A stretch of 63,862 bases of DNA, the filler included, from Folioceros fuciformis (lineage: Eukaryota): the NCBI GenBank assembly GCA_049999805.1. It is 5 parts of 4 records of this genome, joined end to end, with 100 filler letters (N's around TTAATTAATTAA, not from the genome) between each part and the next. Parts side by side here need not be neighbours in the genome. Positions count along the whole stretch, not along the records: positions 45,043 to 61,120 come from JBNGIO010005393.1; 4 more parts are not named here. One strand, given 5' to 3'. Both the position numbers and the translations under genes were made by a program. The notes under the pieces are model-generated. The model made no database searches, was not told the DNA's origin, and worked only from the letters and a program-made list of their open reading frames with translations. Shown here piece after piece: positions 8,757-61,265 of the stretch. Every line of letters begins with the position of its first letter. Positions within the stretch are counted from its first letter, which is position 1.

Positions 8757-9731
8757 TATGCAAACAAAAGCATATTCTTGTTTTGTTGGCCAGTGTTGTC
8801 TAACTGTAGATAAAAAGTCTTGGTAATACCCCTGTATACTTAGAGATGATGTCTTGTATAATATGATTTGTCAAGTTTGCATCGGTTCAGATGTTTGGGA
8901 AATTGAGGACAACCTTCATCCAAACTCCAGTGTTGTAGACAAGTTAGCCAACAACATGGATGTAGATGAGCCCATCAACAAAATCTCTGGGCGGTCCACT
9001 TAACTGCGGAAGTTCCGTTTTTCTCTTATCCATTCCATCTATCGCCATTCCAATATATTGGCTTGGCCGGCCTTGACATTTCAGTCAATGCTTCCCTAGC
9101 CTTGCTCTCTCCTCTTTAATCTGTTCCCTATGAACACGAAGCTTGTCTTTGTAGAACTTTAGCATTGCACAAGTTGGAAGACAGTCAAGTCATGGAAGTC
9201 AATCTATGTACAGGACGCTCGTGTCCGACCTCATGTGGTGGCGCGCCAGCATCCAGTCGCCCATAGATTCACTAAACGCGATCAAGGTGGCGCGCCACCT
9301 CCCCATTGACTTTGGCTCTTAACAAAGGCACTAGAAATGTGGGAGATAACATACCTTGTTGTCACTGATCACTAGTGTTCTCAATCGCAGACTTCAAAGT
9401 TTCATATTCAACACACTTGGAAAATTGGCTGCTCTTTGGAATTTTGACCTTCCAAAAGTACATGATTTCTTTTGGTGTAGCCTAGAGTTTGAGGTTGGGT
9501 GCCAACATCCCAACACCTTATGGCTCTCCTTCCTTCTCCTCCCTATCCCAAGGGGCCTCTTGGGGGGTTTCGGAGGGGGGGTAAGGGTGTAGCCTAAAGG
9601 GTCTTTTAAGGGGTTATGAGGGAAGGGTGTAGCCCCAAGAGACCTCTTGGGGTGCATCCTATCATCATATGGCTCTCCTCCTTACCCCAAGGGGCCTTGT
9701 GGGGGGGTTTAGGAAAGGGAAGGGTGTATGC

Positions 9732-9950: not shown

Positions 9951-12900
9951 TGCCATTGAAAGGACCGTCACCTCATGGCTCGTGGAAGGGGAGCCCGCTC
10001 GTGGGCAAAACCGGCTCATGAGGAACACCGGACTCCCCAATTAACCTATTCCCCTTCTCACGGTTTAGAGCTAAGGACATGCCTCACATTGAGGGCAAAC
10101 AGACATGAGGGCAGGGACATGCGAGAGCACACAAGTGGCTTTGGAAGAGAATTAGTGTTGAGGTTTAGAAGAACATTATGAACAAAATTGTCTGTGTGTG
10201 TGTGACGGTTCATCCAAGGGACACCTAACTACGCTAGGTTAACAATCTCCTAACACACCCCTTAACCTCGCTGGTTAGGCGTTGACTGGAGGCAAGCCCC
10301 AAACTTTAGATAAGCAGCCCATGTGCTGCAAAATAACGAGCTGCACAAGCTAAGGAGCCGATTGAAAACACCTATGGCGTAGCCGTGTCCGTATGACGAG
10401 GGAGAACAACTGGCGATTGGAAAGATCGATAAGCTTCATCCGACATGTTCAAATAAGTCAGTTTTGAGACGTTGATGACAGCAGAGAAGTAAAATCTCGT
10501 AGGCCCAAGGATTACATATGTTGAAAATGTTTATGCTTGGGCAAGTTCTTGGTAAGCAAGTCTGCAGAATTCATGTCGGTGGATACATAAGCAATCTTTA
10601 CGATACCTGTTTCAACGAATTGTCGGACATAGTGCTGCCTAATCTCGATGTGCTTGGTCCTCGAATGGAAACGAGGATTGCTGGTCAAGGCAATGGTGGA
10701 TTGTTATCACAGAGTATTAAAGTCGGAGAGTCATGTGTGTAGGTCAATCCTTGGAGGAAGGTCCTCTCCCATGCTGCCTCCTTAGCAGCATCCGTTAAAG
10801 CAGTATATTCAGCTTTAGTGGATGAAAGAGCCACATAGGTTTGTTTCTTAGACTTCCAATTCACTATACCATTGGATAGCATGAAGCAATAGGCTGAAAT
10901 GTTTTTTCTACTATCTGGGTTAGATGCCCAATCGGCATTTGCATAGCCTGTTATAGAAACATGTGGGCTGTTGTCTTGAAACCATAAACCATAAGAGATT
11001 GTTCCCTTTAAATACCTAAAGACCTGTTTGACAGCTGACCAATGTGGAGGTCCCGGATTCTCCAAAAACTGTGACAAAGTGCTGATAGTATATTGCAGAT
11101 TGGGACGGGTCCATGTACATAAGTAGTTTAGACATCCAATGACATGCCTACAGGGGATATGGGACATAGTAGACTTTTCTTCAGGAGTTTAAGGAGACTG
11201 ATATGAGGTAAGTTTAGAAGCAACAACACCAGGTGTGCTTACTGGTCTTGCTTGGTCTATATTAAACTTATGCAAAATCTCATTGATATATTTTGTTTGA
11301 TGCAGGATGAGGATGCCTTGGCTTCTGTCTCTAAGCAATTGGACACCTAGTACAAAGGTAAGTTCACCTATATCTTTCATGTCAAACCTTTGATGTAACA
11401 TGCTTTTTACGTACTCTAGTAGCTTATTATCATTAGAGACTAAAATGGCATCGTCTACAGATAGGGCGAGGACTATAAAGTGTGATCCCTCTTGCAATAG
11501 GTAAACGTTAGCATCAGCAGGATTCTGGACAAAGTCAAGACTTTAAGGTAATGATCTATGACTTTATACCATTCTCGGGCGTTTTGTTTTAGCCCATACA
11601 ACGTTTTCTTAAGTCTACAGACCCACTCAGGGTGTTCTGGGTCCACAAAGCCTTTGGGCTAAGCCATATTAGTTTCCTCATCTAGGTCTCCATATAGAAA
11701 TGCTGTATTTACATCCATCTAATTAAGATCCGAATTATGTTTAGCTGCAAGAGCCAAAAGCGTCCTGATAGATTGTGTCTTGACAACAGGAGAGAAAGTT
11801 TTGTTAAAGTCGATTCCCTGTACTTAAGAGAATCCGCGTGCCACTAGCCGGGACTTATATTTGGCTATTTCTCTAGCAACATTCAACTTATGCTTAAATA
11901 CCAATTTGCAGCTCACAGTTTTTCTGCCTGCAAGTAAAGGACATAACTCCCAGGTTTCGTTTCTCATTAGCGACTGATGCTCATCCTGGATGGAAGGTAT
12001 CCAATGCTTTTTGTCTTTCCCTTGAATAGCTTCTCGGTAGGACTGGGGTTCTAAACCTGGAGTTATGACTGCAGAATAGATGGTGTGTTCTGTATCATCA
12101 GGAGGTGCAGAGTTATCTACTTGCAGTTGTGCCAGTGAACGGGTACGAGTTCGATGAGAGGGTGGTTCAGGTGACCATCTATCGGAAGCTCGATGTTCTC
12201 TTGTGGGGTACCTGTGTTTTGGCTGAGCTAGGGAATATTCAGGAGCTGCAGGAGCTGGCCTAGGTACCAGCACGGGTTGTGGTGGAGGGATAGTATCACC
12301 AAATGGCTGATCTAATGTGTCCTCAAAATCTGACTCAACTGCTAAAAGTTGCTGGTATTGTATTTATGAGTCTGCTTGTGAAGAGTGGTCGGACATGGTA
12401 TCAAACTCTTGAACATTGACTGCATCTCCAACATCTGTATCACCTTGAGCAGCATCAGTAGCTGCGGGATCAGCATCTGTGCCTTGAGTGGCTTCAATAT
12501 TCGGTAGCAGGTCAACATCGTTGTCACTCCCTGGTGGACCATCATCGTCATCACCAGCTGAATCTAAATCTTGAGCATCACCCCCTACAAGGCCATATGG
12601 TGGAAGACCATCTTGAGGATATGTAATAGGAAGATCATCAAAGTCATCAGCAGGAGGTGCCAGATCGGAGGTTGAAACTGAGGAGAAAGGGAAGTGCTCC
12701 AAAGCAGGCTAGATGAGTTCCTTGAAAGTAATGCTGCAGGCAAATATGGAACTATTCGTAGGAGGGTCATATAGTTTGTAGGCCTTGGCCTCTTCTTCGT
12801 ATCTGACAAAGATAAGTGGGCGGGCACGATCCTTGAGTTTCCTACGCTTCTCAGAGGGAATATAAGCAAAGGCCAGACTGCCAAAGACACGCATGTGAAG

Positions 12901-14424
12901 GATACTAGGTTTCTTCTTCCAAATGACTTCAAATGGCATCTTTCCTTCCACAGCGCTGGTAAGCACCCTATTGAGAATGTAGGTGGCTGTGACTACACAT
13001 TCTGCCCAATATGCCTTGTCAAGACCACTCCATGCTAACATGCTCCTGGTCATTCCAAGCAGGGTTTGATTTCTTCTCTCCGCAACACCATTTTGTTGTT
13101 GCGTGTACGAAACAATGAGTTGCCTCAAAATGCCTTGTGACTCCAAAAGGTGATTGAAATTTGCATTTACAAACTCGGAACCGTTGTCTGTCCGAATGCA
13201 TTTCAGTAGAAGACATGTCTGTCGTTGGATCATAGGAAGCCATTCACTGAACGAGGAAAAGGGGTTAGATTTGTGCTTCAACGAATATGTCTTGGAATAC
13301 AGGCTGAAGTCGTCGGTAATGGTAAGGTAGTACTTAGCCCCTCAAAGGGAGGGTACATGTATCTTCCTTGAGATGTCCTTGTGAACCAAGTCTAGGACTG
13401 AAGAGACACGGTAACCTACCTGTCTACGAAAAGGTAATTCTTTCTGTTTTGCTACGATGCAGGATTCACAGAGTGCAAGGTCCTTAAAACACTTAGGGAG
13501 TGGTTCCATGTAGCAATCAGTGTTTGCCATCTTGACAAGCTTGTTTTTGTTCACGTGCCCCAACCGAGCATGCCATAACTGTGCCAGAGCCCCGTGAGCC
13601 AATGCAACAACATGTGATATAGGGAGGGGAAAACACTGAATGTTCAACTTATACAAATGGTTTGTTAAGAGACCTTAAGCTACCACTACACTGTGACACT
13701 CATCATCTAACTCTTGTCTAGTGATGAAACAACCATCTGAGGAGAAATGAAGTTGATATCCGGGAGTTTTGAGGAGCTGACTGACCGACAAGAGGTTTTT
13801 GGCCATGTCAGGTACGTACAAAACACTATCAAGAAATAGAAATGTGTTATCCTGCAGCTTGAAACGACAAGTACCTATTCCATGTATGGTGAGACCTGCC
13901 AGTTGATGTTAATCTCCCAGCAACACTCGATCAGGTGTGTGGGATGCAACCAAGTTACTAAGCATCCATCTGTCGTTGCAGATATGGGAAGTAGCACCCG
14001 AGTCAAGGTACCTCGAGTTGGAGTCGTTGGCCATAGCTGATAGGCAAACAGTCATAACCACCGGTTGCTTGGAAGAGGAGCTGGATGTTAAAGATTTATC
14101 CTTGGAAACTGTATGGACCTCTGTCGACTTGTTCGGCTTCTCAGTCCATTTAGGTTCTCTTGATTTCTTCTTTCGACATTCACGCTCCCAGTGGCCTTCG
14201 ATGCCACACCAGTTGCAGGAGCCGCCACGCTTCTGTTGATTAGGCTGTGACGTTTTTGAAGCTTTGTTTTTTGCTCTAAATGGAGACTTTCCCTTAGATG
14301 CATAGAGCACTTTGTCTGCTCTAGTCTTTCCTGAAGAACCATGAACTGCCCGCCCTTGTTCCTCTTGAAAAAGGGCACCCACTACATCTGTGAAGGAGAT
14401 TGGCGAAGGGTTGCCAACGGCTAC
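9951..14424 (-). mobile_element. Ty1/Copia retrotransposon, degenerate, 5' part displaced by the LTR at 14425
   Basis: Domains in Copia order on the minus strand: zinc knuckle CNWCGIEGHWEREC, protease YLDSGATSHIC, LWHARLGH, integrase IRTDNGSEF...QQNGVAERRNQTL, RT EPQSYREA...KSRLVARGFS...VDDAIL, RNase H YANADWAS...KAEY. PPT at ~10256-10264 then LTR starting TGTTAGG at 10255. The LTR outer end (9951) is approximate. Many stops and frameshifts. Confidence 0.93.
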
Positions 14425-16714: not shown

Positions 16715-16814
16715 NNNNNNNNNNNNNNNNNNNNNNNNNNNNNNNNNNNNNNNNNNNNTTAATTAATTAANNNNNNNNNNNNNNNNNNNNNNNNNNNNNN
16801 NNNNNNNNNNNNNN
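16715..16814. other. Artificial contig linker (N-TTAATTAATTAA-N); also at 33877-33976, 44943-45042 and 61121-61220
   Basis: An identical 12-mer with stops in all six frames sits at the centre of each 100-nt N block. Confidence 0.95.
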
Positions 16815-33876: not shown

Positions 33877-33976
33877 NNNNNNNNNNNNNNNNNNNNNNNN
33901 NNNNNNNNNNNNNNNNNNNNTTAATTAATTAANNNNNNNNNNNNNNNNNNNNNNNNNNNNNNNNNNNNNNNNNNNN

Positions 33977-44676: not shown

Positions 44677-45812
44677 ATGGGGACTCGAAACATACAGGTT
44701 GCGAGGGTCGCATGGGTAGCGTGCCTCCTGCTTCTGTCAGTGCTATCTGCGCAGGCTGGGTTGCAGTCGGTTCATAGCGGAAGCCGGAAGGAGCTGAAGG
44801 AGGAGACCCCAGCACCACCATCTCGCAGACACCGGCCGCATCATGAAAGCGGGAAACCTCGGCGTGGCCACCACACCAAGCATCCGACTCCTCCCTCCCC
44901 CGGGCATCATGAGCCCCCTCACAAGGGCCATAAGCCCAAACANNNNNNNNNNNNNNNNNNNNNNNNNNNNNNNNNNNNNNNNNNNNTTAATTAATTAANN
45001 NNNNNNNNNNNNNNNNNNNNNNNNNNNNNNNNNNNNNNNNNNCAGGCTCGCCTTACGGCTCCCCACCATTGCCAGGCTCGCCTTACGGCCCCCCACCATT
45101 GCCAGGCTCGCCTTACGGCTCACCACCATTGCCAGGCTCGCCTTACGGCTCACCACCATTGCCAGGCTCTCCTTACGGCTCCCCACCATTGCCAGGCTCT
45201 CCTTACGGCTCGCCACCATTGCCAGGCTCGCCTTACGGCTCACCACCGTTGCCAGGCTCTCCTTACGGCTCCCCACCATTGCCAGGCTCTCCTTACGGCT
45301 CCCCACCATTGCCAGGCTCGCCTTACGGCTCCCCACCGTTGCCAGGCTCGCCTTACGGCTCCCCACCGTTGCCAGGCTCTCCTTACGGCTCCCCACCATT
45401 GCCAGGCTCTCCTTACGGCTCCCCACCATTGCCAGGCTCTCCTTACGGCTCCCCCCCATTGCCAGGCTCCCCTTACGGCTCCCCACCGTTGCCAGGCTCG
45501 CCTAACGGCTCCCCGCCATCGCCAGGCTCTGGTCCCGGCCTTTCGCCACGTTCTCACAATGGTCCGGCTCCCTCACCAGGCTCTCTTCCCGTCTCATCCA
45601 CGCCCGGTGGTGAGGGATCACCAGCTCCTCAGCCTTCGTCGGGGGGTGGAGACAAGAACGGGTTGTCACCGGGTGCCAAGGCAGGAATTAGCATTGGTGC
45701 CATTGTCGGTGCTGCTTGCCTAATCGGAGCAGGATGGATGGTGGCCAAAAAGAGAAGGGCGGCCCCTCCTCCTCCTGCGCCTGCTGCTGCTGTCGCCCAC
45801 ACATATGGCTAG
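44677..45812 (+). CDS. Pro/His-rich type-I membrane glycoprotein (HRGP-like); spans a linker gap
   Basis: Signal peptide ..VAWVACLLLLSVLSAQA, a His/Lys/Pro-rich segment, (PGSPYGSPPL)n repeats, then GLSPGAKAGISIGAIVGAACLIGAGWMVAKKRR (TM plus basic stop-transfer). Continuity across the gap is inferred. Confidence 0.75.
45043..45530 (+). repeat. 30-bp coding tandem repeat, ~16 copies
   Basis: CCAGGCTCGCCTTACGGCTCCCCACCATTG units; variation is mostly synonymous. Confidence 0.95.
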
Positions 45813-46890
45813 TCCAAGTCTTCGTTCCGACCTACGCCATCCTTGAAACCATGACCAGTTGTGTTGGACAGATTTGTTGTGTAAACTATTAATTCACGAT
45901 TAATTTGTATAGAATGCTATGCCACGATTTGCCTCGATTGCTGACAACTTTCTTGTGGGTGAGTCAATGTGAGCTTGCTCAACGTCCAGTGTTTGCTGAA
46001 GACCTCATGGTCTAGCTTTCGCTCTTAAAGGAGGGGCTCACTGTTCTCTTTTCCAGTATGTGTTGAGATGGTTTCAAGTTCAGTTCTAAATAGCTCAGCC
46101 ATTTTTCCCACAAGTTTGAGTGCGCCGCCAGAACTCGTTGTGATTCCTTTGCTCACGGTTGTACAAGCATAGACTTGCCCAAATCGACACACAATTCTAA
46201 CCGTTCACATCACTCAATACGTCAGGTAAGTGCGCGTAACTGCGTGTGATGCAACTATTAAGCACGGTGAACGCATTCCGGACGTCCCTTCCTTCCATAC
46301 GAACGGGAGGTGGACACAACCCCTTCGAATTCGACAGCAACACCACGTCCGGACTGTGCGTTAGTTGCCGGCTACGACATCAGCTTGAAAATTCCCAGCA
46401 CTCCGGGAAGGCGGAGCTCGCACATGAACGACGACAGATAGTTGTCCCCTTTAACAAATTCCACACGAGAACACCACCAAAGCCTTGAAGGCCCTTTCCC
46501 GACATTTTCATGTCCCATCCCCACTGTACATAATAAACCTCACAGAAACACCCTTGAGGTGTTTTTAAGTCCGTCCAGCACCGTGGCTAGGAGCAGGTAG
46601 ATCACATTGGGGCACCTTCTCCGTAGCCTTGCCTAGCGACCTGGTAGTAGATAGCTGCCGTGATCTCCAGAATTTCGCGTGCCCTTAGGGCTTCCAACAT
46701 TTCAGGGCCGAATAGCTCTTGCATGTATTCTCGGTTCTCAGGACAGAGACGCACTTGAACACCACAAACCCCTCCATCGTCACTCTACTCTGCGTTCAGA
46801 GGCTACCTACGTTCAACAAACCACACATCCATGCTCCATCCGCCAAACCTTGGGCTTCTCACACGTCGGTCCAGACATTGTTCCAACGTG

Positions 46891-47268
46891 CTAATATTCC
46901 TTCGGAGGCGCCTGAGTTGGTAGCAGCCCAAACCTCTTCTTCAAGGTGATGCGCTGCTTGGAGAACTTGTCATCAGGGGAGAACCGCGCTGCAGCCACCC
47001 AGAATCAAAGTGCAAGCAACCCATTAGCAGCCAGAAATTCCCGCCAGATCCATGGCAATGCAAAACCAACAGAACGAGGACTTTGCATACCAGGATGTGC
47101 CGACTGACTTGGCGTCCCAGCTGGGTCTTCCTTCTGCAGTACAGCACGAGAAGAATTGAAAATAATTCACAATGCGAGTTCTCGGAACCCCAGGTGCAAT
47201 CCAGTGAGACTTACCTTCAGAGTATAAACCTTGTCACCGTTGTCGTTAATATAGAACATGAGATACAT
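46891..47268 (-). CDS. NOP10: H/ACA snoRNP subunit NOP10, 64 aa; exons 47268-47215, 47133-47091, 46988-46891
   Basis: The spliced product is [64 protein letters not shown], with canonical GT-AG introns. Confidence 0.96.
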
Positions 47269-47415
47269 GGTGGGAGGAAAGGTTTTCGGGTTGGGCAGAA
47301 AGAGGGAGATGCCAGGAGGGGTAAGGTAGAGGAGAGCAGAGCCTGGATAGCAAATGTAGAGCGATCCCCAGAAGGGCGACACGAAGAGACCCACGGCCCA
47401 ACACGCAGCCTCCGT

Positions 47416-47593
47416 CTAGGGTTTCTCCCCTCAAGTTGCAATTTGGTCGTCCCTTTCCGCAACGACGGGCGGCGTGAACTGAAGTCTCTTCCGGTCTCTT
47501 GCGGTCTCTTCCGTAAAACTGAAGTCCAAGCAGACTGTCACTTGGAAAGAGTTCCATCTAGACTCCCTCCAAAGCTGCAAAAAAAACCCTAAA
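47416..47593. promoter_or_regulatory. Telo-boxes upstream of NOP10
   Basis: TAGGGTTT at ~47417 and AAACCCTAA at ~47585. Telo-boxes are typical of plant ribosome-biogenesis gene promoters. Confidence 0.55.
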
Positions 47594-47752
47594 ATGCTCT
47601 GCGTTAGGAAGTTACCTTTGTAAGAGGAAGTTACCTCTCTAACACGAAGTTATCTCGTTTGAAGACAAAGTTACCTCTTTGGGAGGTCTCTAACCCATAA
47701 TGACGAACTGCGAGGCATTCTTTACTTTGCTTGAGAGTCGTTCGTTTGTGTG

Positions 47753-48141
47753 TATGGCATACCAAAGGGGACACTCTTTCACTATACTGTTTTTAATGGT
47801 TTCCCATGGGGTATCTAATCTAATATTTTCTTTTGATGCCTATATTTTTCCGATCTTTTTGGTAAACCAACCTAGCTGGATGCCGCACCAAAGGGGACAT
47901 GGCTCAACCGTTACAGCCCGTTATGGGCTGGATGTTGGTAACCTTAGGGCAGAAAGCCCAAACACCCCCCCTAACCATAGTGGGGGTGCGCCCGTGCTTG
48001 GGCAAGATATGCTTGCGAAGTGCAAGCATGTCTGGTTTGGTTTTGGCCTTCAAACTCGCGCACGCGCCAAAGCAGATGCATAACCCATGTGTCTCTAAAA
48101 AAACCTAGAGAGAAGGGGCTTGTCCCCTTTGGTATGCCATA
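47753..48141. mobile_element. MITE with TIR (TA)TGGCATACCAAAGGGGACA
   Basis: Perfect 21-bp inverted termini including TA; non-coding. Confidence 0.8.
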
Positions 48142-48482
48142 TGTGTGCCTGAAAGGGTTGCACTAAAGAACGACCCTCCAAGGGAAAAGTAGTCTTGTAC
48201 ATGGTACGGCATGCCAGAAGGGAAAGAGCATATCACCTTTTTTTTTCACACATTTGTCCCGTTCACTGCCAAGACGGACGTGAAAGCTCAAAGCCAAAGT
48301 GGAAAGTGGACATACCGTCGGTCCAATCCAAAAACCCAAACGGAACATGACACCCTTAGTTTATCACTTTATGTATGGAAAAGAAAAACATGACACTCCA
48401 AGGGTGACGCACCTTGCCAAAATGGTCATTCACTTCCTTGCTCTTTTCCGCAGAAAAATGGTGGCTTTCTTAACGGGAAGGC

Positions 48483-49047
48483 TATGGCATACCAAAGGGG
48501 ACACGCCCCCTCTCTCTAGGATTTTTTACAAACACACCAGTTATGCTATGAGCATCCCCTTTGGGGCGTAGGTCAGTTTGACGGCCAAAATATGAGCATC
48601 CCCTTTGGGGTGTGGGTCAGTTTGACGGCCAAAACTAAACTGGACAGCATGAATTCCATGCACGAGAACCCCTAAGCAAGGGCTCATGCACTCAGCCTCC
48701 TTGCCTCCCCCCTTCCTACCATCTAGCCTAATACCATACCAATGCCCTCCACCTCCAACGGGGTCACAAAGAATATTCTTTGAAGATCCAACCCTAAAAG
48801 AGAATATTCTGTAAAGATCCAACTCTAGGGAACATGAAACCTATATAACAAGTTTTCAAAGTGTGAACATGAAAACGAAGAGTTGTGGTGTTTTTTCTGT
48901 GTACCCTTTGGTGCGGAGTTCAGTTTGGTTGGTTTACCAAAACGGATAGGAAAAATATAGCCATCTAAATGGAATATTCGAGTAGATACCCCATGGGAAA
49001 CCCTTGAAAAATGTATAGTGAGAGTGTGTCCCCTTTGGTATGCCATA
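48483..49047. mobile_element. Second MITE of the same family, opposite orientation
   Basis: Same TIRs. 48899-49047 is the inverted match of 47753-47899, and 48483-48560 matches 48065-48141. Confidence 0.8.
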
Positions 49048-50214
49048 TAAGGCACACCATGTTTATACTCCACAAAGATCCCATTATGTGAATCTATGCA
49101 ATACCAAGCTTCTTTACTCCACATCAACCTATAAATTTGTAGTCCAAAGCACTAATTTCCTATGGTAGCCTACAAAGGCCATTTTATAGCTTTCCAAATA
49201 AATTTGCATAGTGCGTTTCTCCACAATCTCTTTCAGTTGTAGGGCAGCATGCCCAACCCTACAAAGAGGCAACCTTCATTATCCAACCTACTCTTAACCC
49301 TCCCCACACTGCTCTCTATCAAAAGTGCCCCACTCCTGCCTACAAGCCTCTTCCTTGATTCTTCTCATATAAATATGGTTTGAAGAAGGTTGATAGCTCT
49401 CCATGTTCATAAGGTGGACTCTTCTTTAGTCCCCATCCACAATTGGTCTTCAACTCTTAAGCCCCCATGCTTGCAATACAAGAAAGGATTGCATCTTGGA
49501 AAGGATTGTGAAGAGTTGTAGTACATGTTTGGATACTAAGTCGCAACACGTGATACTTCCCTACAACTCGACTAGGCAGGGTTATGTACAATGCGGTTGC
49601 AAAAGGCTTTTGTGGTGGCAAAACCCTGGGCAACTGTTTGTCAAAGGGTTCGACCTTTAGTGTCCACACTTATCCCACTGTCATTGAGACATTGGGTTTC
49701 GTTCCCACGAAGGAGCAATGGGGTTCCTTGCTGCTATGGATGGAAGGTCGGACTCAATCAACTTGATGACGGATTCAAGGGCTCCCCTCCAGCTGCTATC
49801 AGGCATGGGACAGCCCTCGCTGCCCAGGGGTCGAATGCACCCCTCTCGGTGCCTACAAGTTCACTCCAGCCACTACAATGACACTAACCTCTAAGGTCTG
49901 CAACTTCCCTCACTCTCTTCACTCACTCACTCACTCCAGCACCAACAACAACACCACTACCTTCTACACTTCTCTATGTCATGACTCCCCGACTCAGCAA
50001 GAGTCACTAAACTAACCCCAAGGTAGAGAAAGAGGGAAACACACTCCCCTCTCGGATTCCTCCTTCCCACAACCTTACCAAACACCATGAAACATGGCCG
50101 GCATATAGCACTTGTCCAATCAGGAAACAAGAGTGTATAGGTCAAGAGAAAGACACATCCTTTACAATAAGAGCTAGGAGCAAGCCCCTTCACCCTAGCC
50201 ATCACACCTCATGA

Positions 50215-50412
50215 TCCTACCAGATGCTGTACAACTGGCAACATGCTGCTCACGATTCTACCAGATGCTATACAGCTAGCAACACGCTACTTGCGATTCT
50301 ACTAGACATTGTACAGCTAGCAACACGCTGCTTGCGATTCTACCAGACACTGCACAGCCGGCAACACACTGCTGGCAATTCTACTAGACGCTGTATAGCC
50401 GGCAACACGTTG
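50215..50412. repeat. 41-bp tandem repeat, ~5 copies
   Basis: GATTCTACCAGATGCTATACAGCTAGCAACACGCTACTTGC-like units. Confidence 0.85.
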
Positions 50413-50438
50413 TTCGTCTTGAACTAAGCAAGGTCATA

Positions 50439-50773
50439 CCACAAGAGCATGAGATGACAATCTGCCTCCTTTAAGCTCACTCTATCTTATAGGATCCTCT
50501 CTCTCTTACCTCACCTCTCTCTAATTCGACCATTATTATTTTAATAAGACAACTAGTCTAGCCGACTGTCACCAACCACTTATTTAGACTTTCCTAGCAC
50601 GTCCTGCCACAAGAGCAGAACATGACAATCTGCCTCCTTCAAGCTCACTCTATCTTACAAGATCCTCTCTCTCTTACCCCATCTCTCTCTAATTCGACCA
50701 TTATTATTTTAATAAGACAACTAGCCTAGCCGACTATCACCAACCACTTATTTAGACTTTCCTAACACGTCCT
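50439..50773. repeat. ~168-bp direct tandem duplication
   Basis: CCACAAGAGCA..ATGACAATCTGCCTCC...TTAGACTTTCCTA.CACGTCCT occurs twice. Confidence 0.88.
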
Positions 50774-51157
50774 ATCATCAATATTGTTCACATTCTTCAA
50801 CGCTTGCACACAAACATGATCCTCAAAAGCACACACATTCATTGCATAGTGATTGATACAGAAACGCTCATAAAGCATGCAACCGCCATAACCCCTAAAA
50901 CAACCAAACAAACTATGTAACCTAACTAAGTAATAATGTTGGTAATGTATAGTATTTAAATGACATTAAATACTTTAATACTCCCACTCATTACTAACAT
51001 TTACTTTGCACAATATATGTAACTCAACCCTTGCTTAACCAAGGGTTGTCTGAACAGTGAAACCCTAACTTCCATTACGACTTTCTTTGTGAAACCTTGT
51101 GTCGTGCTTAGTCTCTGTGGCTGAGCCAAGGCCAACCGCCACCAGCTAAGCTGAACC

Positions 51158-52090
51158 TTGCCGTGTGCTCCAATCTACTCCAGCACGTCTTTGCGTGACA
51201 ATCCTGTGATCCTGGACGAAGATGAAGTCAGGGAAGACCTGATCCATGTGTGCAACGCCATAAGACCCAAGCGCTTCAGTCGTATCTGCTCCACAACTGC
51301 AAACAATCCGTCTTCTTCAGCTGCTCCAAATCTTGCAGGTGCTTCTGTTTCATAGTCTCCCACTATTGCTGCTGTTGTGGCAACTAATCAGCCTTCCACG
51401 CTCATCTGCAACTGTTACATTCGTGGTGGAGAGAGCTGATGAAGAAGCTGGAGAACGAGCTGCTAAAGCTCAGAAGACCTCAGATTCTCAGAGTCCTCTT
51501 CACCAGGAGAATCAGGCCACCACACCTGCAGCCTCAAACATTGAAGGACCAAGAGTGGAACCTGCTCACCTAATGCGAAGGGAGCTTATACCTTTCTCAA
51601 CGGAGAACTAACTGTTTTCTTCCCTTCTGATTACAGGCCTAGACACTTCAACCTGCCTAAGGGGAGCCACGCTAAGAGTGTACAGATTTTCTCAAATAGT
51701 GACGGTATGAATGACCCTCTAATCTCATATGTGTTTGTGTGTTCAATGACCACGATTCATGATACTTGGCACAGATGGGGAGGAAAGAAGGGTAATTTAG
51801 TTTCATTCTACAGTGAGCAACCAGACTCTAATCTATCTTTCACTATTTATGTGGTTTGAGTTGTTGCTAGTGCTGACTTTATTACTAACACTCTCACTTG
51901 AATGTGCAGGATCCAGCGATATTATGTGTGACGAAGGTGGTGTGTTATACAACTTTGAAGAGGACAGTTAAGTTTCTGAACCCGACAATGACAGAAGGTT
52001 CCTTGCTTGCCTGAGAGGGGATAAGGATGAGAGGACCAAGTTCTTTAGCCAACTCAACAGCTCTAGTGATTCTGAGAGCTCTAGTTGCTA
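51158..52090 (+). pseudogene. Decayed multi-exon gene of unknown product, convergent with the methyltransferase gene
   Basis: Protein-like frames (DNPVILDEDEVREDLIHVCNAIRPKRF) and several GT..AG intron-like segments (acceptors TTACAG ~51636, GTGCAG ~51909). Confidence 0.35.
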
Positions 52091-52579
52091 GACATCTTCA
52101 AACTTTGCTATCACTACACAGCTAATCTTTCTGAGCAGACAATTTGGGGGACTCATGTACCCCAAGAGACTCCTTAAGCTGATAGTGTTTAACTTTTAGA
52201 AGTGCCTTTGTTAATATGTCTGTTGTGTTCATATTAGTCGGTATATACTCCAGTTTGATTTGCCCAGTTACTGGGCAAATCTAAACGGGCGGATTCCACA
52301 AAGCCCGTTTTACACATTTCACATTTGTCATGATCCGTGCTTCTTATCTACTTTTGATCTAACTTGACAAACAATCACGCCACCGGCATGTATCCGAATA
52401 TTTTTGTTGCTGCAACGGTCAATAAAACCAAAATTACTAAAAAAAATAGTTTGAGTCTTCTATGCGAAACTTGATATTCGCAACCCTAAACATATGGTGC
52501 GCCGGTCAACCGGCGCACACCTTTTTCAAAGTACTTCAAGTTAAGATTATACCAATTTCAAATTAAGTCAAGTGTATTC

Positions 52580-55500
52580 TCAAACGAAAATAGGGTTGTC
52601 CTGGTTGGCTTCGGAGTCCACAACTACATCTAAATCATTCAAGCGTTGTACATCTGTATCGCCGAAGTCATTGGCACACACTCGAAGTACCGAGAAGTTG
52701 GAGTCCTCTGTAGTTTGAGGCGGCAGGGTGCAATTCTCATCCCAGACAGTGATGGTGTAAAGATCTTCCGCAGGCCTATTATCAATCTGGTGTATGACCT
52801 CTCCTTTCTTACCCAACATACTGAACACCATCAGTTTGCGCTCCACGCTCCCATCACTGCACACTTCCTTCACCCAAAACTTTGATGGGCCTCGCGTAAA
52901 CGACTCTATAGTAATCTCCTCATTTGCGTCAGGCAAAGACCCTAGCCCGATAATCCGCTGCATGATATATGATGTGCACCTGACATCCACATTGATTGCA
53001 ACCGCATGCCTTCCCTGCTGAATTGCACTTTGGAGAAGAGATCCAGAGCCTACGCATGCATCAACCACCCAGTCCCCCTCACACGAAAACATTTTAATCA
53101 GCATACGCATCAACCCTAATGGTTTTTGGTAAGGGGAGACGACATGTGCATCTGCTTAATGAAAGAGGTGCTTCTTCACCACTGCTCCATGCCTTATAAC
53201 CCTTGGGAGTAGAAATCCATGATTCGCAAATAGTGCAGCCTTCAATTCCTGAGCCTATGTTTGAACTACACTCCCAACAGTGACATACTCAACTATTTCC
53301 ATTGCTCCTGCGTTTGCAGGTATGTTCGTCTTCTCCCATACCAGTGTCTGGATGCTGCCCTTCTTGCACCATGGCCGCAGTGCCTCCCTTGCTTCCGAAA
53401 TCATGTCTACTCCATGCATTAGAATAACCCTAAAAATATTGCTCGAGGTGCATTCACTGAACGCTCGGAGCATTTCATCCAAATCTTCCACCTTCTTCTG
53501 CCTATCATACTCATGACGTTGTAAGCCCCGAGGCAGGTCTGCAAATAGTAGAGTGTAGGGTCGTTTGACAAGAAATGCCTTCATTTCCAGTACATTCCTT
53601 TGAAAAACCTGGTATTTTACCTTTGAGTTACTCGCCAAAACCCGAAAATCCAACAGCCTCGCGTCCATATCCGCTGCCGCTAACTTCTGTTTCTCCTCTT
53701 CCACCCTTTTCCAGTTTTTTGCTGAATAAATGAAATCCTGAATAGGCTTCGGGAGGGACTCCAAGTTCGCTATCTCTGAGGGTTTCTACGACCAAAATGG
53801 TAAACGTTAGTCTGGCTATCGATATAGCTACTTTAGCATGAACATACATGAGTGCGCCGATCGACACGCGCACTTGAGACCGCTGGAGCTCCAGAGTGCC
53901 GGTAGACCAGTGCACTCTTGCCTACAGCTGCCCTAGTGTGCCGGTAGATCGGCGCACTCCTGCTTAAGGAACCGGATCAGTAACACGAGAAATGAACCGA
54001 AACACTTACCACTTTGGCGAAGGCAGTCTGGAATTTTAAGAGATGCCCATCTTCTGTGTGCTTCGGGTACATCGCTTCAGCCTCCTCAAATGGTTCACAC
54101 TTCATTACCAGTCGGAAGGCATGTTGGATTAAGTGTATCTTCTTCTTCTTCCCCACTTCAGTGTCCATGTCCCGCAGTTGAAGCTTCCCCTGGATGACCT
54201 TCTGTGTCATTGCTATCAACATCTTCTCTCCCTTGACACGCGTTGGGACGCCTTGAAAGGCTCTCCATGGCCTGCCTTGCATAGCTCCTAGCACCCTGCT
54301 GCTGTCTTCGGTAACCTGGGTAAAAGAACTTTGCAAGGCAGAATCTCTTGTCTTCCTTTTTGCCTTGGCCCTCTTTGTTGTCCCGGCTGTTACCATGCTC
54401 TTCTGCTCTAGGAGCTCACCCTGTTCCCACATTCTGAAGATCCTATCCACATTGTCCCACAAAACACCTGTGCATCTGGCTACCCGATATGGCAAGGTCT
54501 GCCTGACCACCATCTTCTACACCCAGTCTAAGTCGTGGGGATCTCCACCTTCGTCAGTCATCCCCGGCAACCTGTACAGGTTGAACTTCCACTTGACTGG
54601 TGGCTTCTCTTCTCTTGAATGATTCCCGAGGAAAATGCTGCACCTGCTGCACTGCTCCCCCTTTCCGTCTCTTCTGATTCGCTGCCTGCCCTCTTGTTGC
54701 AGTGCCTGCTGCTTTTCGCCGTTTCGGCTGTGGAGATGAGGCTGTGGAGAAATACAGGAGGAGGAACATTGGGGTCAGCGGTCAGTGTTTTAGCAACAGA
54801 ATCCTCCTAGGAAGCCACAAACAAATCCAAGGCAAAATACTCAACTTGCACACAACGGCCTCACCAGATGTCATTTTCCACTATTTTGCAAGAGACGTTG
54901 ATGCTTTCCTCTTCCACTGCCTTGGTGTGCTGGTACACCGGCGCCCCTTGGTCACCCTCTTCCGCGGTGGAGTGATCTCCACAGGAGACTCCTTAGATGC
55001 ATCACCCTCGCAGGAATTGCGGGGCGTCTCCAGAGCATCATTCAAACTGTCTTCAGCTGAGGAGTATTGAGCCATCTCCTCGGCTTCCTCCTCTTCGCTG
55101 TGTTCTTGAACGTAGGGTGCCTCTTCTTCCGAAATCTCAGGTTGCATACGAAACATGTCTTGATTGTCTTTCACGAATCCTACTGCACGAGTGTTGACGA
55201 CTCCGAATTCTGCTTGCACCGTCTTCCGCTGTCGCTCCCCTGCAAACCACGCCACAAGAGCCCTAAACTTCAGCACCGCATCCCCTACACACCGCAAAAC
55301 TGTTCGACAAAACTGCTCTCCACCCTAATTAGCGAAAAACAAACACAAAAGTTAGGGTTTACGATAATTCTCAGTAATGACATTTTAACCTTTTAAGTTG
55401 ATAAGACCACTTACGTCCTTCAATAACAGACAATCTCTTAGCCGTTTTTCATCCATAGCGGTTCGCATCGGTGAGGTATGGCTTTCGCAACATTCACAAC

Positions 55501-56127
55501 CACTAAACTGTGACTGTCGTAGTCATCCGTAATGTGGCTTGGTGGGTGACAGGTGAGGATGAGATTCAAGTGAGTTTCGTCGTCTTCACTGTCCACATAC
55601 ACACAAAGAATCCATCCTACTCTTCCTGCTTCGTCCTCCACCAAACCTTGAAACTCATTCACCCACAGAGCAACAAGAGGAATCCACGACAAGTTCAAGT
55701 CATCAAGCTCATCTTCAGCTATCAAAAACCATTCCCTATCAGTGTTGAATCTTTTGGCCAGAGTGTCTTCTAACTTCTTCAGTCTCAATCCCTCTACAAA
55801 GTTGTAGGCATTCGGAATGTTGTAATTCTGACTGCCACCGTGATTCACAGTCAACGGAATGTGGTTCAGAGGTCCTTCACTTGCTTTTGAATTGGACGCT
55901 CTCACGCTTCCACCTAAGTTATCCTTCCTTCCTCCGGCGGTCTGGGCAATGGGAGTAGCCTCTTCGCCAGAGGGTGGTGCAGGTCGGTGTCCATCTCTGT
56001 CGGTGTTGTGACCAGACGACGCTTGCGTAGTTGCTTTCCCGACAAACCTTTGCTTTCATACTCGTGGAAGCGCCTTAACGACCCTGTTCACAAGTTGAAG
56101 TTTGTTGCTACGACGACCATATGCCAT
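52580..56127 (-). pseudogene. Large intron-containing gene ending in a beta-class N4-cytosine/N6-adenine DNA methyltransferase domain
   Basis: The last exon 53785-52580 is one frame with two premature stops. It contains motif-IV-like LLFADLPRG (DLPRG at 53525-53539), LVWEKTN, SPYQKPLGLMRMLIKMFSCEGDWVVDACVGSGS (motifs X/I) and GRHAVAINVD. An in-frame phase-0 intron lies at 53786-54009, with another intron at ~55300-55414. Linkage of the 5' exons is less certain. Confidence 0.82.
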
Positions 56128-56176
56128 TGGTGTCCACCCAACAAGGGAAGAGTCGCACAGCACGTAGTCTTTTCTC

Positions 56177-58966
56177 ATGACGGAAGTAGTTGGAGAAGAG
56201 GTGCCCATGCACCGGATTTGTACAAGAAAGAATTCGAAAACGAACTGTTTAGTTGAAACCGAATATCCACTATTACCGACCGCCAATGCATCGCCGGCGT
56301 TGGAGTCGACCTTTAATCGGAAGCTGGCTTCAGAGTCAATGATTGAAACACCCTTAGATCATCGACGATGTCGGCGGAAGAGACCTTCAACAATACCAGA
56401 GGCTAAGTGTTCAGAGCTTCGCATTTCCCTTAATTATAGAAAGATATGCTGTGCGAGACAATGTCTGAGATTGCTTGGCAAACCAGGATTCAGAGAGTTG
56501 CGATATCGTTTTTTGAAGATGAGTAGGACACAACAAGAAACCTTTTTGCAGGCACATTTTGATGTCGAATAGACTGAGAGCGCATGTCCAATCGCGAAGC
56601 CATTCTTACTTGGGTTGGGGAAAATAAGGTGTTGTCAAGACGCTTTCAGAAGAGTGTATTATATTGGTTCAAATAGCTATGAGGGAGCGAAAGAACGTGC
56701 TTGTGGGAACATTGTTTGGTCCAGAGCTATCCGCTCACCGCCTTAGGCTCCAGGGTATGCCGCTGCTGCGTGCATATGGATGGATCAATTGTTTCTCCTA
56801 ATTGCAGAGCGTATGCCAAATGTTGAACTGTACCATTTGCCCGACTCTTACACAAAGGAGGAAATTTTCATGGACTACTAGGGGCAAATGAGCAGAGCAG
56901 GACAATACAACATTTTGTACTCTTACTTATGTCAGCTATGGGCCTTGCACTTCCCGAAAGTGTGCATTCCAAAAATGAACAGATTTTCCTTGTGTACTAC
57001 GTGCGATTATTTGAAGAGAAACATTCGCTCTGAAACAAATAAACAAAAACAAGGTACGAATTTGTTCTTAGGGTTATGTTTTTTAATTCCATGCTGTTTC
57101 TTGCATATGTTTCTAGTCTGGTGCTGGTTTGGGTGACACATGGAGTGCGCCGGTCCCGGCGGGTCTGGACCAGTGCGCTGGTCTACCGGCACACTTGTCC
57201 AGATGCATGAGAAAAGTGCGCCAGTACACCGGCGCACACCCGCAGACCAAAGGTAGTGAACGCCGACTGTTGTTCCCGTTCCTGGCAAAGGGTTTTGAAA
57301 GCGACTTAAAAGTACATCGACAGGGACTGAAGGCAGAGAGGGAGAAGAGTGTCAAGCATCGTGTAAAATGCTATAGCGATCCGGCTCAATATCTCGGGTT
57401 ATCTATAGATGGTATGGATCAGCAAAAAACTTAGATTCCTCATTTTGTGCGGCTTCCAAAAGACTTGGCGGACGTTGACCTTATTGACGTCCATGTCGTG
57501 GGCTGCATGGTGTACAATAGCACAATGTCACTTGAGCTCTTCATAGAGTATGGAAATATACGGAACGACGCAAACTTAACGATTTCTACTATTCAGAGTG
57601 TGATTCACGCGTGCGTTAGACTTCTTCTAGGCGATATGTACTTGCAGCTGGACTACACAGCAAGAGAGAACAAAAATGCTTTGCTGTTTTTATATCTAAA
57701 TATGTTAGTTAGTGAAGAAAGGAATCTTCAAGAAGGTAAAGGTGGGGTTTTTACTGGTGGGCCACACGCACGACTAGGTGGACCATATGTTCTCTTGGTT
57801 TTTTACGGCTCTGGGAAGGAAAGAAGCACTGACTTTACCTGCACTTATCGCTGTTATGCAAAGTTCTTATACACCTACGCCAGAAGTGCATGAAGTGAAG
57901 GAGGTGCCAGACTTTCGGCGATTTGTGTGGCCTGTACCTTACGGAAAAGCCGATTATCAGCTGTTCACCTACTGCACAATATTTCGTTCCAACACCAGTT
58001 CAAGATCACAAGGGAGAGCCGAGGTGAACGGGGCTTTATAACAATGATGCGCGGGAACCAATATTGTACAGACGATTTTTAGTCACCAGATGAGGGTATC
58101 GAGTTTCTGAAGCATATTCTAGACACAGATATCAAACCTGCTCCATTTTTACATCTACAATCCAGGAGCAAAAAACAAAGGACAGTTTCGAACAATGTTG
58201 TTAAATATCATCTGGCACAAATCAGATCAAAATTGGAGATGCGATTACGACAACACTTAGGACCATTCAAGAACTTGTGGTGGGATGGGTTTTAGGCAGA
58301 GCAAGAGGTTATCGTGCATTCTATAAACTCCAATGTAGACAGAGAACTTGATTCTCCTTGGCGGTGGTATAATTGGGAGGCGGCAGAAATATTGAACACA
58401 CCCATTAGTGTACCAGACGAAATGGTTGTTCACAATCCACGCATCCGCGAGATTCCCAGAAGAAACATGTATGTGGGGCATACCGTAGGGAGACGGACCT
58501 CAATGACAACCGCGACAGTTTGAACGGGGATATAACTGAAATAGAAAAAGGGCATATGATTGCAGTCCCTTGCAAGACTGAGGAAGACAATAGGCCGTTT
58601 TGGATTGCCAAAGTCTTAGAGGCAGATATTACATGTGAGACACTATGTGTCAAAGTGGACTGGTGGGTTACCAAATGTTCAGATGCCTTTGAGGGTCGTT
58701 ACCAAGAAGAGATTATTTTACCACATGAAGCTCCGCCAAGAGGGTTACTTGGTGGTCGCAGACCCAAGTCAAGCAGAAGACTTCGGAAGCACATAGATAC
58801 ATTATTCATTGAAGACACATTTATTCTAGCATATGGATTTAACTTGACACGCCAAAAACAGCTACCCTCCCAAACGAGGACTCTCATTCGCAGAAACCTA
58901 TATGTCCTCAATCGTGACCAGGATACACTGCCGCCTGAAAATAATGAAAACTTGTCAGACATTTAG
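56177..58966 (+). pseudogene. DDE-type transposase (Sola/DUF7869-like), decayed, intron ~57054-57288
   Basis: CCARQCL, RFSLCTTC, LSIDGMDQQKT*IPHF, NDANLTISTI, YLQLDYTARENKN and FLLVGHTHD*VDHMFS motifs, with stops and frameshifts. Confidence 0.8.
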
Positions 58967-59527
58967 ATAAAAGTATTAAGGACAAACTGGTATGATAATT
59001 ATTGTATGTAGCGCCAGTCAAGTTTCGTTTTCGACTTGACATACATGTGCCATAAGCGGGAGTGCGCCGGTAGACCGGTGCACTCTTGCTTGTTCCGCGC
59101 CGAGTCAATGGTGTTATGTTTTGCCACCGTTTCTGAAAAATGCAAATAGATATCGATAGGTGATAATTTTGAGGAATAGGGTCACCTGATATGAGGTATC
59201 GCTCAAACACCTATGACTTTACATGGAATCCGATAACACGTGAATTACGTGATACCCGCCATATTACGAGGTTTTGTCATGTATTTGATTGCAATGACAC
59301 CCGCAAATTTGCTAGTACTTAGGAAACAATTCATGATTAAGTTTATACTCAACACTCTTTTAGGCCACATTTTAGGTTCTCCTGACAAGAACATTGGAAA
59401 ATGCGGATATCTATAAATGTTGCGGGGAGCAAGTTTGCTATGTTTCACTTGAACATTATTCAGAAAAGAATTAGAAAAAATGAATCATAAAAACGTTTGA
59501 GTAAAACTGTTTATATACTAAACCCCA

Positions 59528-61120
59528 TGTCGTTTCACATAACCCTAACTTAACTTAATGAATGTTGGCTTTAACTCCAACACTCCCTCTAAAGCAACAT
59601 TAGGTTATCAGACTAAGGGTTTAGGTGATGCGTGCCCGTTGCCATGGAACAGTTGTCAATAGGATCGACTCCAGTCTACGTGCAAGTGTAGGAGAGGAGA
59701 GGAGAGAAGAGAGGGTGGTATTGGTGATCAAAACCATGAAAACAATACACATCACCACTGTCTTACTATGGAGGTCCGAGGTCTCCATTTAAGTAGTACA
59801 TTTAGGGCTACACAACTTCCAGGTTCAATATGGGATAATCTACACTATCCTAAGTTCACTAATAACTAGAACTTGTCTAGTATGAACCCAACTGGGATAA
59901 CTAACACCACATGAGTTTAGCTCATATAAAGCTCGATAACTCAACACTCCCCCTCGAGCTCAACATAGCATCTGTACGCCTAACATAGCTCGGAATTTCT
60001 TCAGCTTCTCTGCTCCCATTGGCTTAGTAAATATATCGGCTATCTGCTCGTCTGTATTGACATACACAAGATCAATAGCTCCAGATAAAATCCTTTCGCG
60101 AAGAAAATGATAATGTATTTCAATGTGTTTTGTCCTGGCATGAAACACTGGGTTTCGCGCCAACTGTATGCTGCTAAGATTGTCACAGTAGATAACAACC
60201 TTGTCGTTGACCTGCAATCCAAAATCTCCGAGTAACTGACAAATCCAAGTCACTTCACACGCTGCCATTGCTGCGCCTCTGTATTCAGCTTCTGTACTAG
60301 ACAAAGCCACTGTAGGCTGCTTCTTGCTACTCCATGTAATTGCTGCACTCCCAAGTGAAAAAGTGAATCCACTTGTAGATCTACGATCAGTAACACTGCC
60401 TGCCCAATCTGCATCTGTGTACCCACACAGGTTTATTTCTAAATCTGCAACATAAAAGAGAGCATGATCCATAGTTGCCTTCACATAGCGCAACGTTCGC
60501 CTTACTGCATCCAAATGTGGCTTTCTTGGCGCCTGCATAAACTGACTTTGCAATCCCACTGTATAGTTCAAATCTGGTCGGGATAGAGTGAGATATATCA
60601 AGCTACCCACAATCTTCCTGTACATTGTTGGATCTTCAAGTGCTTCACCATCATGAGCACTGAGCTTTAGATTTTGATCCAAAGGAATCGAGATTGGCTT
60701 GCACTCAACCATACCATACTTAGTTAGTACATCCGACGCATACTTCCGCTGTGACAGCCAAATGCCTGTGTTGGTTCGTATAATTTCAATGCCCAAGAAG
60801 AACCTCAGTTCACCTAGGTCCGCCATCTTGAACTCTTGTTGTAGAAGTTCCTTGATCTGCTCCACTTGATCCAACTGATTACCTCCAATGATTAGATCAT
60901 CCACATAAATGGTCACAAAGACCAGTCGTTTTGTACTTTTGCACACATACAACGAATGATCCGCATCTGCCATGTTGAATCCGATGTGAATCAGATGCTG
61001 AGCAAGACGCTCATGCCAAGCCCTCGGGGCTTGCTTCAGTCCGTACAACGTTTTTTTCAGCTTGCACACATGATTTGGATGATCCAAATCCTCATAACCT
61101 GGTGGCTGGTCCATGTATAC
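59528..61120 (-). mobile_element. Ty1/Copia 3' half: uninterrupted RT-RNase H frame (61114-59960), PPT, 3' LTR (~59528-59946)
   Basis: LYGLKQAPRAW...IYVDDLII...YTDADWAG...SSTEAEY...ARTKHIEIHYHFLRE...ADIFTKP, then PPT GAGGGGGAG followed by TGTTGAG. The LTR outer end is approximate. Confidence 0.93.
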
Positions 61121-61265
61121 NNNNNNNNNNNNNNNNNNNNNNNNNNNNNNNNNNNNNNNNNNNNTTAATTAATTAANNNNNNNNNNNNNNNNNNNNNNNN
61201 NNNNNNNNNNNNNNNNNNNNTATGTTGCACTACCCAAAGGAGGACACTTATGTCCCCGTCCTCTA

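Follow-up and report, generated by a model that had tools for sequence, protein, structure and literature searches.

The stretch of DNA analysed here comes from Folioceros fuciformis (GenBank assembly GCA_049999805.1) and is called the window below; it comprises 63,862 nucleotides, filler included. On one of its segments, a contig of ~16 kb at positions 45043-61120, two divergent genes lie side by side: a transposase gene of the DUF7869 (PF25273) family on the plus strand and, on the minus strand, a gene whose product contains a domain like those of the beta-class amino-methyltransferases (MTases). Both genes are cargo of one element that is multi-copy in this organism, and the copy of the element in the window is a dead pseudogene. 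DNA methyltransferases acting on adenine-N6 (N6A) or cytosine-N4 (N4C) are rare in eukaryotes, and disputed. Where DNA-modifying enzymes are borne by transposons, they bear on how mobile elements evade or exploit host silencing, and such cargo also bears on the entry of bacterial and phage enzymes into eukaryotic genomes. The features of the element, in window coordinates, are the following (ORF, open reading frame; L014, a metagenome locus described below).

52283-59503, strand not assigned: approximate extent of the multi-copy unit, from contig depth, with the breakpoint at 52283 taken from one contig joint.
52497-52521, strand not assigned: palindrome copy, 62 nt past the MTase stop codon.
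52580-53785, minus strand: beta-class amino-MTase-like domain in one frame, with in-frame stops at 53252-53254 and 53156-53158.
53525-53539, minus strand: position of motif IV, DLPRG in place of DPPY, from the alignment to homologues.
53786-54009, minus strand: 224-nt GT..AG intron with three palindromes, at 53852, 53894 and 53936 (42-nt period).
53977-54516, minus strand: helical middle-region exon, common to ParB-MTase relatives, in which it follows the ParB-like core (E 1.9e-21).
54517-56125, minus strand: upstream ORFs 54881-55324 and 55438-56055 and a candidate ATG at 56125, with the same depth as the rest of the unit.
54925-54949, strand not assigned: degenerate palindrome copy within the minus-strand ORF 54881-55324.
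56177-58966, plus strand: DUF7869 DDE/D transposase pseudogene, aligning to residues 77-838 of the intact, 890-aa transposase of L014.
57054-57245, plus strand: candidate GT..AG intron of 192 nt with a palindrome array at 57145, 57173 and 57216.
59062-59086, strand not assigned: palindrome copy, 96 nt past the transposase stop and 88% complementary to the copy at 52497.

The transposase gene is identified by a Pfam match to DUF7869 in the ORF at 57435-57893(+) (E 3.9e-13; 49.9 bits, cut-off 26). The three DDE transposase motifs named in the preliminary description of this DNA can be read directly: DGMDQQKT at 57408-57431, LQLDYTARENKN at 57642-57677 and FLLVGHTHD at 57748-57774, the last followed by an in-frame TAG. 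High-scoring tblastn segments against intact relatives cover 56342-57016, 57288-58478 and 58526-58900 and contain seven in-frame stops, and the reading frame is also broken by a frameshift between 57678 and 57747. In this decayed copy, the exon phases on either side of the candidate intron are out of step by 1 nt. A literature search found no paper mentioning 'DUF7869'. Near its C-terminus the transposase has a further conserved region (..PFWIAKV..V.W..; window 58409-58966(+), L014 residues ~740-865) that belongs to no Pfam family and may represent a small domain for binding chromatin or DNA.

The Pfam scan covered nine ORFs of the window, seven of which had no match above the cut-off. For the MTase-like gene, the ORF at 52580-53155(-) matches PF01555 (N6_N4_Mtase) with E 8.4e-10 and 39.4 bits (cut-off 26.7), a match limited to profile positions 163-212 of 221, which hold motifs X and I. 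The N-terminal half of the domain, at 53255-53785(-), has no Pfam match, yet it aligns to homologues. Two homologous proteins, P0002 and P0104, are read by tblastn through the whole domain in frame -1, across both stops. Since the 33 codons between the stops also align to homologues (AVVKKHLFH*ADAHVVSPYQKP), the stops are nonsense mutations in coding sequence and not the marks of an intron. The order of motifs is permuted, with DLPRG (53539-53525) placed before SPYQKP and CVGSGS, both of which are in the minus-strand ORF 52580-53155. As had been proposed from the sequence, the domain falls among the beta-class N6/N4 MTases in profile searches.

The remainder of the minus-strand gene can be followed some distance upstream. 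Splicing out the 224-nt intron joins the middle exon and the MTase exon exactly in frame (..QTAFAKV|KPSEIANLE..), the flanking exons being in frames -2 and -1, and the middle exon is also matched by tblastn of P0006, P0026 and P0104. When a profile of the family was compared with the window, it matched the C-terminal half of the MTase (E 7e-23), the helical region (E 2e-21) and the N-terminal half of the MTase (E 1e-7). Beyond the middle exon, over the next 1.6 kb upstream, a Pfam scan of the ORFs detected no known family.

The transposase and MTase-like genes are divergent, and candidate ATGs are present at 56125(-) and 56177(+), ~50 bp apart. A head-to-head layout with ATGs at this spacing had been claimed; the divergence and the two ATGs stand, while the minus-strand ATG opens a frame of merely 23 codons. 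The claim that the two genes show similar decay also holds. Judged by tblastn against intact relatives, they are dead to a comparable degree, with seven in-frame stops and the frameshift in the transposase and two stops in the MTase domain.

Do the two genes belong to one mobile unit, as was first suggested? Evidence within the organism comes from Logan contigs of four sequencing runs (X1-X3, which are one sample, and X5), placed on 49000-61100 at a likeness of at least 80%. Summed contig depth in X1, which is not equivalent to copy number, was 50-66 at 51020-52231, 172-565 in all bins of 52232-59503, and above 5900 beyond that point (copia sequence). Depth was alike in the two genes (257-565 in MTase bins, 281-546 in transposase bins), and variant sites in both were carried by 13-23 different contigs of X1. 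With multi-copy depth at about the same level across the two genes, the MTase-like gene is part of repeated DNA and not a single-copy host gene. These data also show that an earlier estimate of the extent, 52497-59083, fell a little short: the multi-copy depth begins at ~52283 and continues to 59503 or beyond, about 7.2 kb. Among the differences between element copies, C>T and G>A predominated (in X1, 554 of the 1440 variable positions over the whole stretch 49000-61100), as would be expected if 5-methylcytosine had been deaminated in silenced repeats.

A second line of evidence comes from relatives of the MTase-like protein. A search of representative proteins with the C-terminal MTase ORF returned 298 proteins at E <= 1e-3, and the best matches formed a eukaryote-like family (P0001, P0002, P0006, P0007, P0104 and others) with PF01555 in 10 of the 10 scanned. 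No longer homologue of the N-terminal MTase ORF was found at E <= 1e-3 among 517 candidates, and homologue searches from P0002 and P0104 gave three and two proteins, respectively. Metagenomes were then scanned with an alignment of six sequences. This yielded 259 relatives, of which 80 loci were kept, and 34 of the 80 match the N-terminal MTase piece or the middle exon of the window. The transposase, searched for with the window pieces and the intact L014 and L024 proteins, is matched in three of the 80 loci (L013, L014 and L024). At least 4 kb of sequence upstream of the MTase gene is available in only two of the 34 loci, L013 and L014, and both have a head-to-head transposase there, encoded by an intact 890-aa DUF7869 ORF (E 1.7e-52). 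By DUF7869 profile score, L014 reaches 178 bits and L024 176 bits; the L024 transposase is 60% identical to that of L013 and L014.

Locus L014 shows what a complete element may look like. Inverted repeats of 37 nt, 97% complementary, lie at 180-216 and 7737-7773 and enclose 7.6 kb, which contains the intact transposase ORF and a divergent, multi-exon accessory gene. In 11 contigs the L014 terminus (...CCCGGTGTT) follows the MTase gene at a distance of 0.75-1.1 kb and is joined to 11 different flanks, and one terminus joined to 11 distinct flanks is a signature of transposition. The single mobile unit proposed in the preliminary description is thus borne out by the equal multi-copy depth, by the enclosure of both L014 genes within inverted repeats and by the 11 flanks.

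What kind of protein does the accessory gene encode? Long homologues and metagenome loci have in common an N-terminal region that corresponds to no named Pfam family. An AlphaFold2 (AF2) model of this region of L014, built from a 15-sequence alignment, had a pLDDT of 81 and a pTM of 0.71. In a Foldseek search with the model, the top matches were ParB, Noc and KorB (TM-target 0.40-0.53, E 3e-5, probability 1.00), with sulfiredoxin next. According to this model, the accessory protein of the relatives combines a ParB-like module with an MTase in one fusion. The Pfam ParB_N profile matched none of six eukaryote-type homologues at E <= 1; only P0089, which is of bacterial type, was matched, below the cut-off. 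For the MTase part, hhalign of the family profile against P0089, which carries DPPYG, gave a probability of 98.8% and E 8.7e-17 over 210 columns, with DiPyG of the family aligned with DPPYG.

We conclude, with a probability of roughly 80%, that the window contains a dead copy of a ~7.2-kb cut-and-paste DNA transposon family with a DUF7869 transposase and a ParB-MTase accessory gene, whose product may modulate the element's transposition or silencing. Autonomous members would carry two divergent genes between terminal inverted repeats. The first would encode the DUF7869-type DDE/D transposase, and the second an accessory protein that descends from prokaryotes or phages. In this protein a helical linker would connect a ParB-like DNA-binding module to an MTase-like domain of the beta class (DpnA/CcrM-like). 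In a live element the accessory protein may bind the element's own DNA, with the palindromes near both ends and in both introns as candidate binding sites. At these sites it could methylate adenine-N6 or, in the DLPRG and DIPHG variants, act as a regulator that binds S-adenosylmethionine (SAM) or DNA. Either role would tune the element's own transposition or the silencing of the element by its host.

Several results weigh against this interpretation. Neither terminal inverted repeats nor a target-site duplication could be recognised in the window copy, so its ends are set by contig depth alone; the left and right flanks of the unit have only the 25-nt palindrome in common, and the L014 inverted repeat was looked for in the window by blastn-short and not found. 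A subterminal 25-nt match between window 59115-59139 and L014 288-312 (92%) was rejected, its score being within the range of shuffled sequences. At L014 itself there is no clear target-site duplication, and this metagenome assembly may be chimeric. A 4-bp target-site duplication together with a DDD transposase is reportedly how Bao et al. defined Sola1 in 2009. The ParB core went undetected in the window copy, both with the family hidden Markov model (E > 0.2) and by hhalign of the two upstream ORFs (0.1-0.3%). In addition, the metagenome relatives are only ~27-31% identical to the window proteins over long alignments, and the catalytic aromatic residue is missing from motif IV of the window copy and of several homologues (see below).

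The association of the two genes also has its exceptions. Co-occurrence in the same divergent layout is seen at L013 and L014, while L024 has another order: at L024 (1043-5964) the DUF7869 transposase and the ParB-MTase gene share a strand rather than being head-to-head, with the transposase downstream, which reflects either a true rearranged family or an assembly chimera. No DUF7869 was found in the 2.8-2.9 kb upstream of the MTase gene at L006 and L030, or in at least 3 kb downstream at L002, L003, L006 and L020 (four of the five such loci, the fifth being L024, which has it). Ten flank ORFs of loci lacking DUF7869 were scanned; two encode retrotransposon gag or integrase, and eight have no family. 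The pairing of transposase and MTase is therefore recurrent, not universal.

The most serious alternative concerns the activity of the accessory protein. Perhaps the MTase-like domain of this subclade is inactive and serves as a DNA- or SAM-binding module, like METTL14 or the domains in DIRS1 elements, so that it writes no N4-methylcytosine (4mC) or N6-methyladenine (6mA). Motif IV reads DLPRG in the window, P0001, P0002, P0007 and P0071, and the window's DLPR does not fit the canonical (D/N/S)PP(Y/F/W) tetrapeptide. Among 40 readable locus pieces the motif is DIPYG in 20 and DIPHG in 16, with DIPRG, DIPSG, DPPYG and DPPFG once each. The catalytic aromatic has been lost where DPPY is replaced by DLPRG, which makes inactivity a serious possibility; the fourth position varies among Y, H, R and S in the family, and dead MTase domains kept by transposons have precedent (Iyer et al.). 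On the other hand, the D and P of motif IV, QKP and the glycines of motif I (CVGSGS) are nearly invariant across the family. DLPR recurs in four proteins, which share 35-58% identity with the window or with one another, and is therefore under constraint, and a His or Arg might still contact the flipped base. We would give an inactive domain little more than one chance in three.

If the protein is active, adenine-N6 would be the more likely target, judging from sequence profiles. The family profile scores best against N6-adenine enzymes, namely the DpnA type (1.6e-15), CcrM (6.8e-15) and MboIIA (5.7e-14), with RsrI also matched (range to 1e-10). Among N4C entries, a PDB 'DNA cytosine-N4 methyltransferase' gave 2.9e-9 and PvuII 1e-3, so that the closest relatives by profile score are N6A and not N4C enzymes. 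The Ser-type motif IV of the N4C class, TSPPY, is likewise absent from the window, which reads ADLPR at this position. The idea in the preliminary description that the unit may mark its own ends or host DNA with 4mC or 6mA is therefore not supported by this copy, a pseudogene in which motif IV departs from (D/S)PP(Y/F).

A second alternative concerns the palindromes. The palindrome GTGCGCCGGTNNACCGGCGCAC has seven matches at <=3 mismatches, all in 52497-59083, and none in 100 shuffles; a repeat search finds eight copies of 22-29 nt, all within the element in the 64-kb window. As the preliminary description stated, copies follow both stop codons and occur in an intron of each gene; in each of these GT..AG intervals they form a triple array. 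Instead of being sites for the accessory protein, these arrays could be secondary insertions (a small miniature inverted-repeat transposable element, an introner-like unit or a hairpin satellite) that are spliced out or tolerated. Such an origin would account for the absence of the array-bearing GT..AG intervals from intact relatives; the L013, L014 and L024 transposases are single unbroken ORFs across the site of the 57054-57245 interval. Contig joints (53854>53935, 53916>53943 and 53960>59059) imply that the number and arrangement of palindromes vary between element copies, and the palindrome sequence was not found in L014. It is less easy to see why insertions of this kind would leave all 7-8 copies in 64 kb inside the element, including symmetric spots after both stop codons. 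L014 too has palindromes near both ends and a conserved intergenic one, and inverted-repeat arrays adjoin ParB-like accessory genes in the Bostrychia Plavaka elements, according to a preprint (bioRxiv 10.1101/2025.02.11.637652). We consider secondary insertion unlikely on balance, though well worth keeping in mind. The intergenic palindrome is a near-perfect one of 41 nt between the divergent genes, at L014 3629-3669, and is conserved at L011 14-54 and L013 3435-3478; it is a candidate for a shared operator or promoter element.

A more speculative scheme would give a lineage of plant-type cut-and-paste transposons a means of self-recognition derived from a phage ParB-MTase. The ParB module would load on the palindromes, and an MTase that has drifted from DPPY to DIPY, DIPH or DLPR would write or read a non-canonical mark by which the element is told apart from host DNA, the palindrome introns having been gained in introner-like fashion. 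We regard this scheme as improbable. Finally, that the MTase-like gene has no relation to the transposase remnant next to it, through nested insertion or because a host gene lies beside, or was captured by, a transposon in this genome only, is very improbable and already largely refuted: the lack of inverted repeats and a target-site duplication around the window pair, and the existence of some related MTase genes without a transposase within 2.8-5 kb, would suit it, but it is contradicted by the equal multi-copy depth across both genes, by the recurrence of the pair in two or more divergent lineages from metagenomes (L013/L014 and L024) and by L014, where one inverted-repeat pair holds both genes and the terminus has 11 distinct insertion flanks.

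The setting of the element is that of a eukaryotic genome rich in transposable elements. The window consists of joined contigs, with spacers of the form N44-TTAATTAATTAA-N44 (stops in six frames) at 16715-16814, 33877-33976, 44943-45042 and 61121-61220, and features on different segments are therefore not necessarily genomic neighbours. Copia polyprotein fragments lie on both sides of the element, at 52122-52280(-) and 59960-61168(-); Ty1/copia fragments (reverse transcriptase-RNase H, integrase) are found at these two places and at 10685-13341(-). The copy at 59960-61168 is very high-copy (depth 4,000-16,000), as is the region 49404-50768, where summed contig depth in X1 is 19,000-67,000. In this region, an 82-nt unit occurs four times at 41-nt spacing (50213-50417) and a pair of 168-nt repeats lies at 50433-50768; the sequence probably represents a satellite or a portion of a long terminal repeat. 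A second DUF7869-type transposase remnant, short and strongly decayed, lies at 8645-9165(-) and has 38-44% identity to L014 residues 314-451. No MTase-like remnant was found near it or elsewhere in the window outside the element, a result that is uninformative because the remnant is only ~0.5 kb long and on another contig.

How does this element compare with known systems? The preliminary description had set it beside the N4C enzymes of Marchantia (DN4MT1) and bdelloid rotifers (N4CMT), and had suggested that such elements could be a vehicle for plant N4/N6 MTases. The element family does have in common with these proteins (bioRxiv 10.1101/2021.02.12.428880; PMC8885841) that it encodes a eukaryotic beta-class amino-MTase of prokaryotic origin. 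MpDN4MT1a/b, according to the former source, have the TSPPY motif of N4C enzymes and are the product of a host gene expressed in sperm, whereas the element family has D where DN4MT1 has the Ser of TSPPY. Since the motif is not TSPPY and N6A profiles score higher, the proposed connection is not supported.

Prokaryotic and phage ParB-MTase fusions such as P0089 have the same architecture, with ParB N-terminal and a beta-class MTase C-terminal. The prokaryotic members keep DPPY and match Pfam ParB_N. In the eukaryotic family, by contrast, motif IV is D[IL]P[YHR]G, the genes contain introns, low-complexity tails are present, and the ParB module can be recognised by fold only. Look-alikes of P0104 include phage clusters with ParB_N and N6_N4_Mtase (score 0.86-0.87), which we take as a lead only. 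Iyer et al. (2016; PMC4738411) described adenine MTases fused to ParB and a helix-turn-helix in chlorophytes, as well as inactive MTase domains in DIRS1 elements, and discussed phage ParB-Tls loci.

Closer parallels are found in algal transposons. For the Plavaka (KDZ) elements of the red alga Bostrychia, whose accessory genes PAG2 and PAG3 are also reported for Chondrus, the preprint (bioRxiv 10.1101/2025.02.11.637652) describes one gene with PF01555 and SET, another with a ParB-like domain and a 2-oxoglutarate (2OG) oxygenase, and tandem inverted-repeat arrays beside the ParB-like gene that are proposed to be self-binding sites. These elements resemble ours in being DNA transposons with PF01555 and ParB-like functions and inverted-repeat arrays. 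They differ in that MTase and ParB-like functions are on separate genes there, and in one protein beside a DUF7869 transposase here. A close match is the giant DNA transposon Sola1-1_Ec32 of Ectocarpus (PMC12477816), in which an accessory gene for a ParB-like plus N4/N6-MTase protein is transcribed from the other strand than the transposase. Its authors, who cite Iyer et al. 2011 and Petroll et al., propose that the accessory protein binds and modifies its own transposon. In both systems the cargo is encoded inside the transposon, opposite the transposase, as judged here from the layout in the window and the inverted repeats of L014. The Ectocarpus element, compared by its published description, is 21.5 kb with a 1104-aa protein, against ~7.2 kb for the window unit and 7.6 kb for L014; the window copy is without a detectable ParB core and has DLPRG; and its host is plant-like (copia neighbours), not a brown alga. 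A review of land plants lists a Sola1 in Physcomitrella.

The view that this pairing is not a described family therefore has to be given up, since ParB plus N4/N6-MTase cargo opposite a transposase is published for Sola1-1_Ec32. Elements of this kind have thus been reported from algae before, in Ectocarpus and, with related cargo, in red and green algae. Any excitement is tempered by the death of the window copy, by its non-canonical catalytic motif and by the lack of a tie between the family and DN4MT1. Set beside the algal reports (Ectocarpus, red and green algae), the present case extends them to a plant-like genome, ties ParB-MTase cargo to the uncharacterised DUF7869 transposase family and supplies intact, L014-type relatives with defined ends. 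What is new here is a decayed member in a plant-like genome, with a non-canonical motif IV and with element-specific palindromes that fill an intron of each gene.

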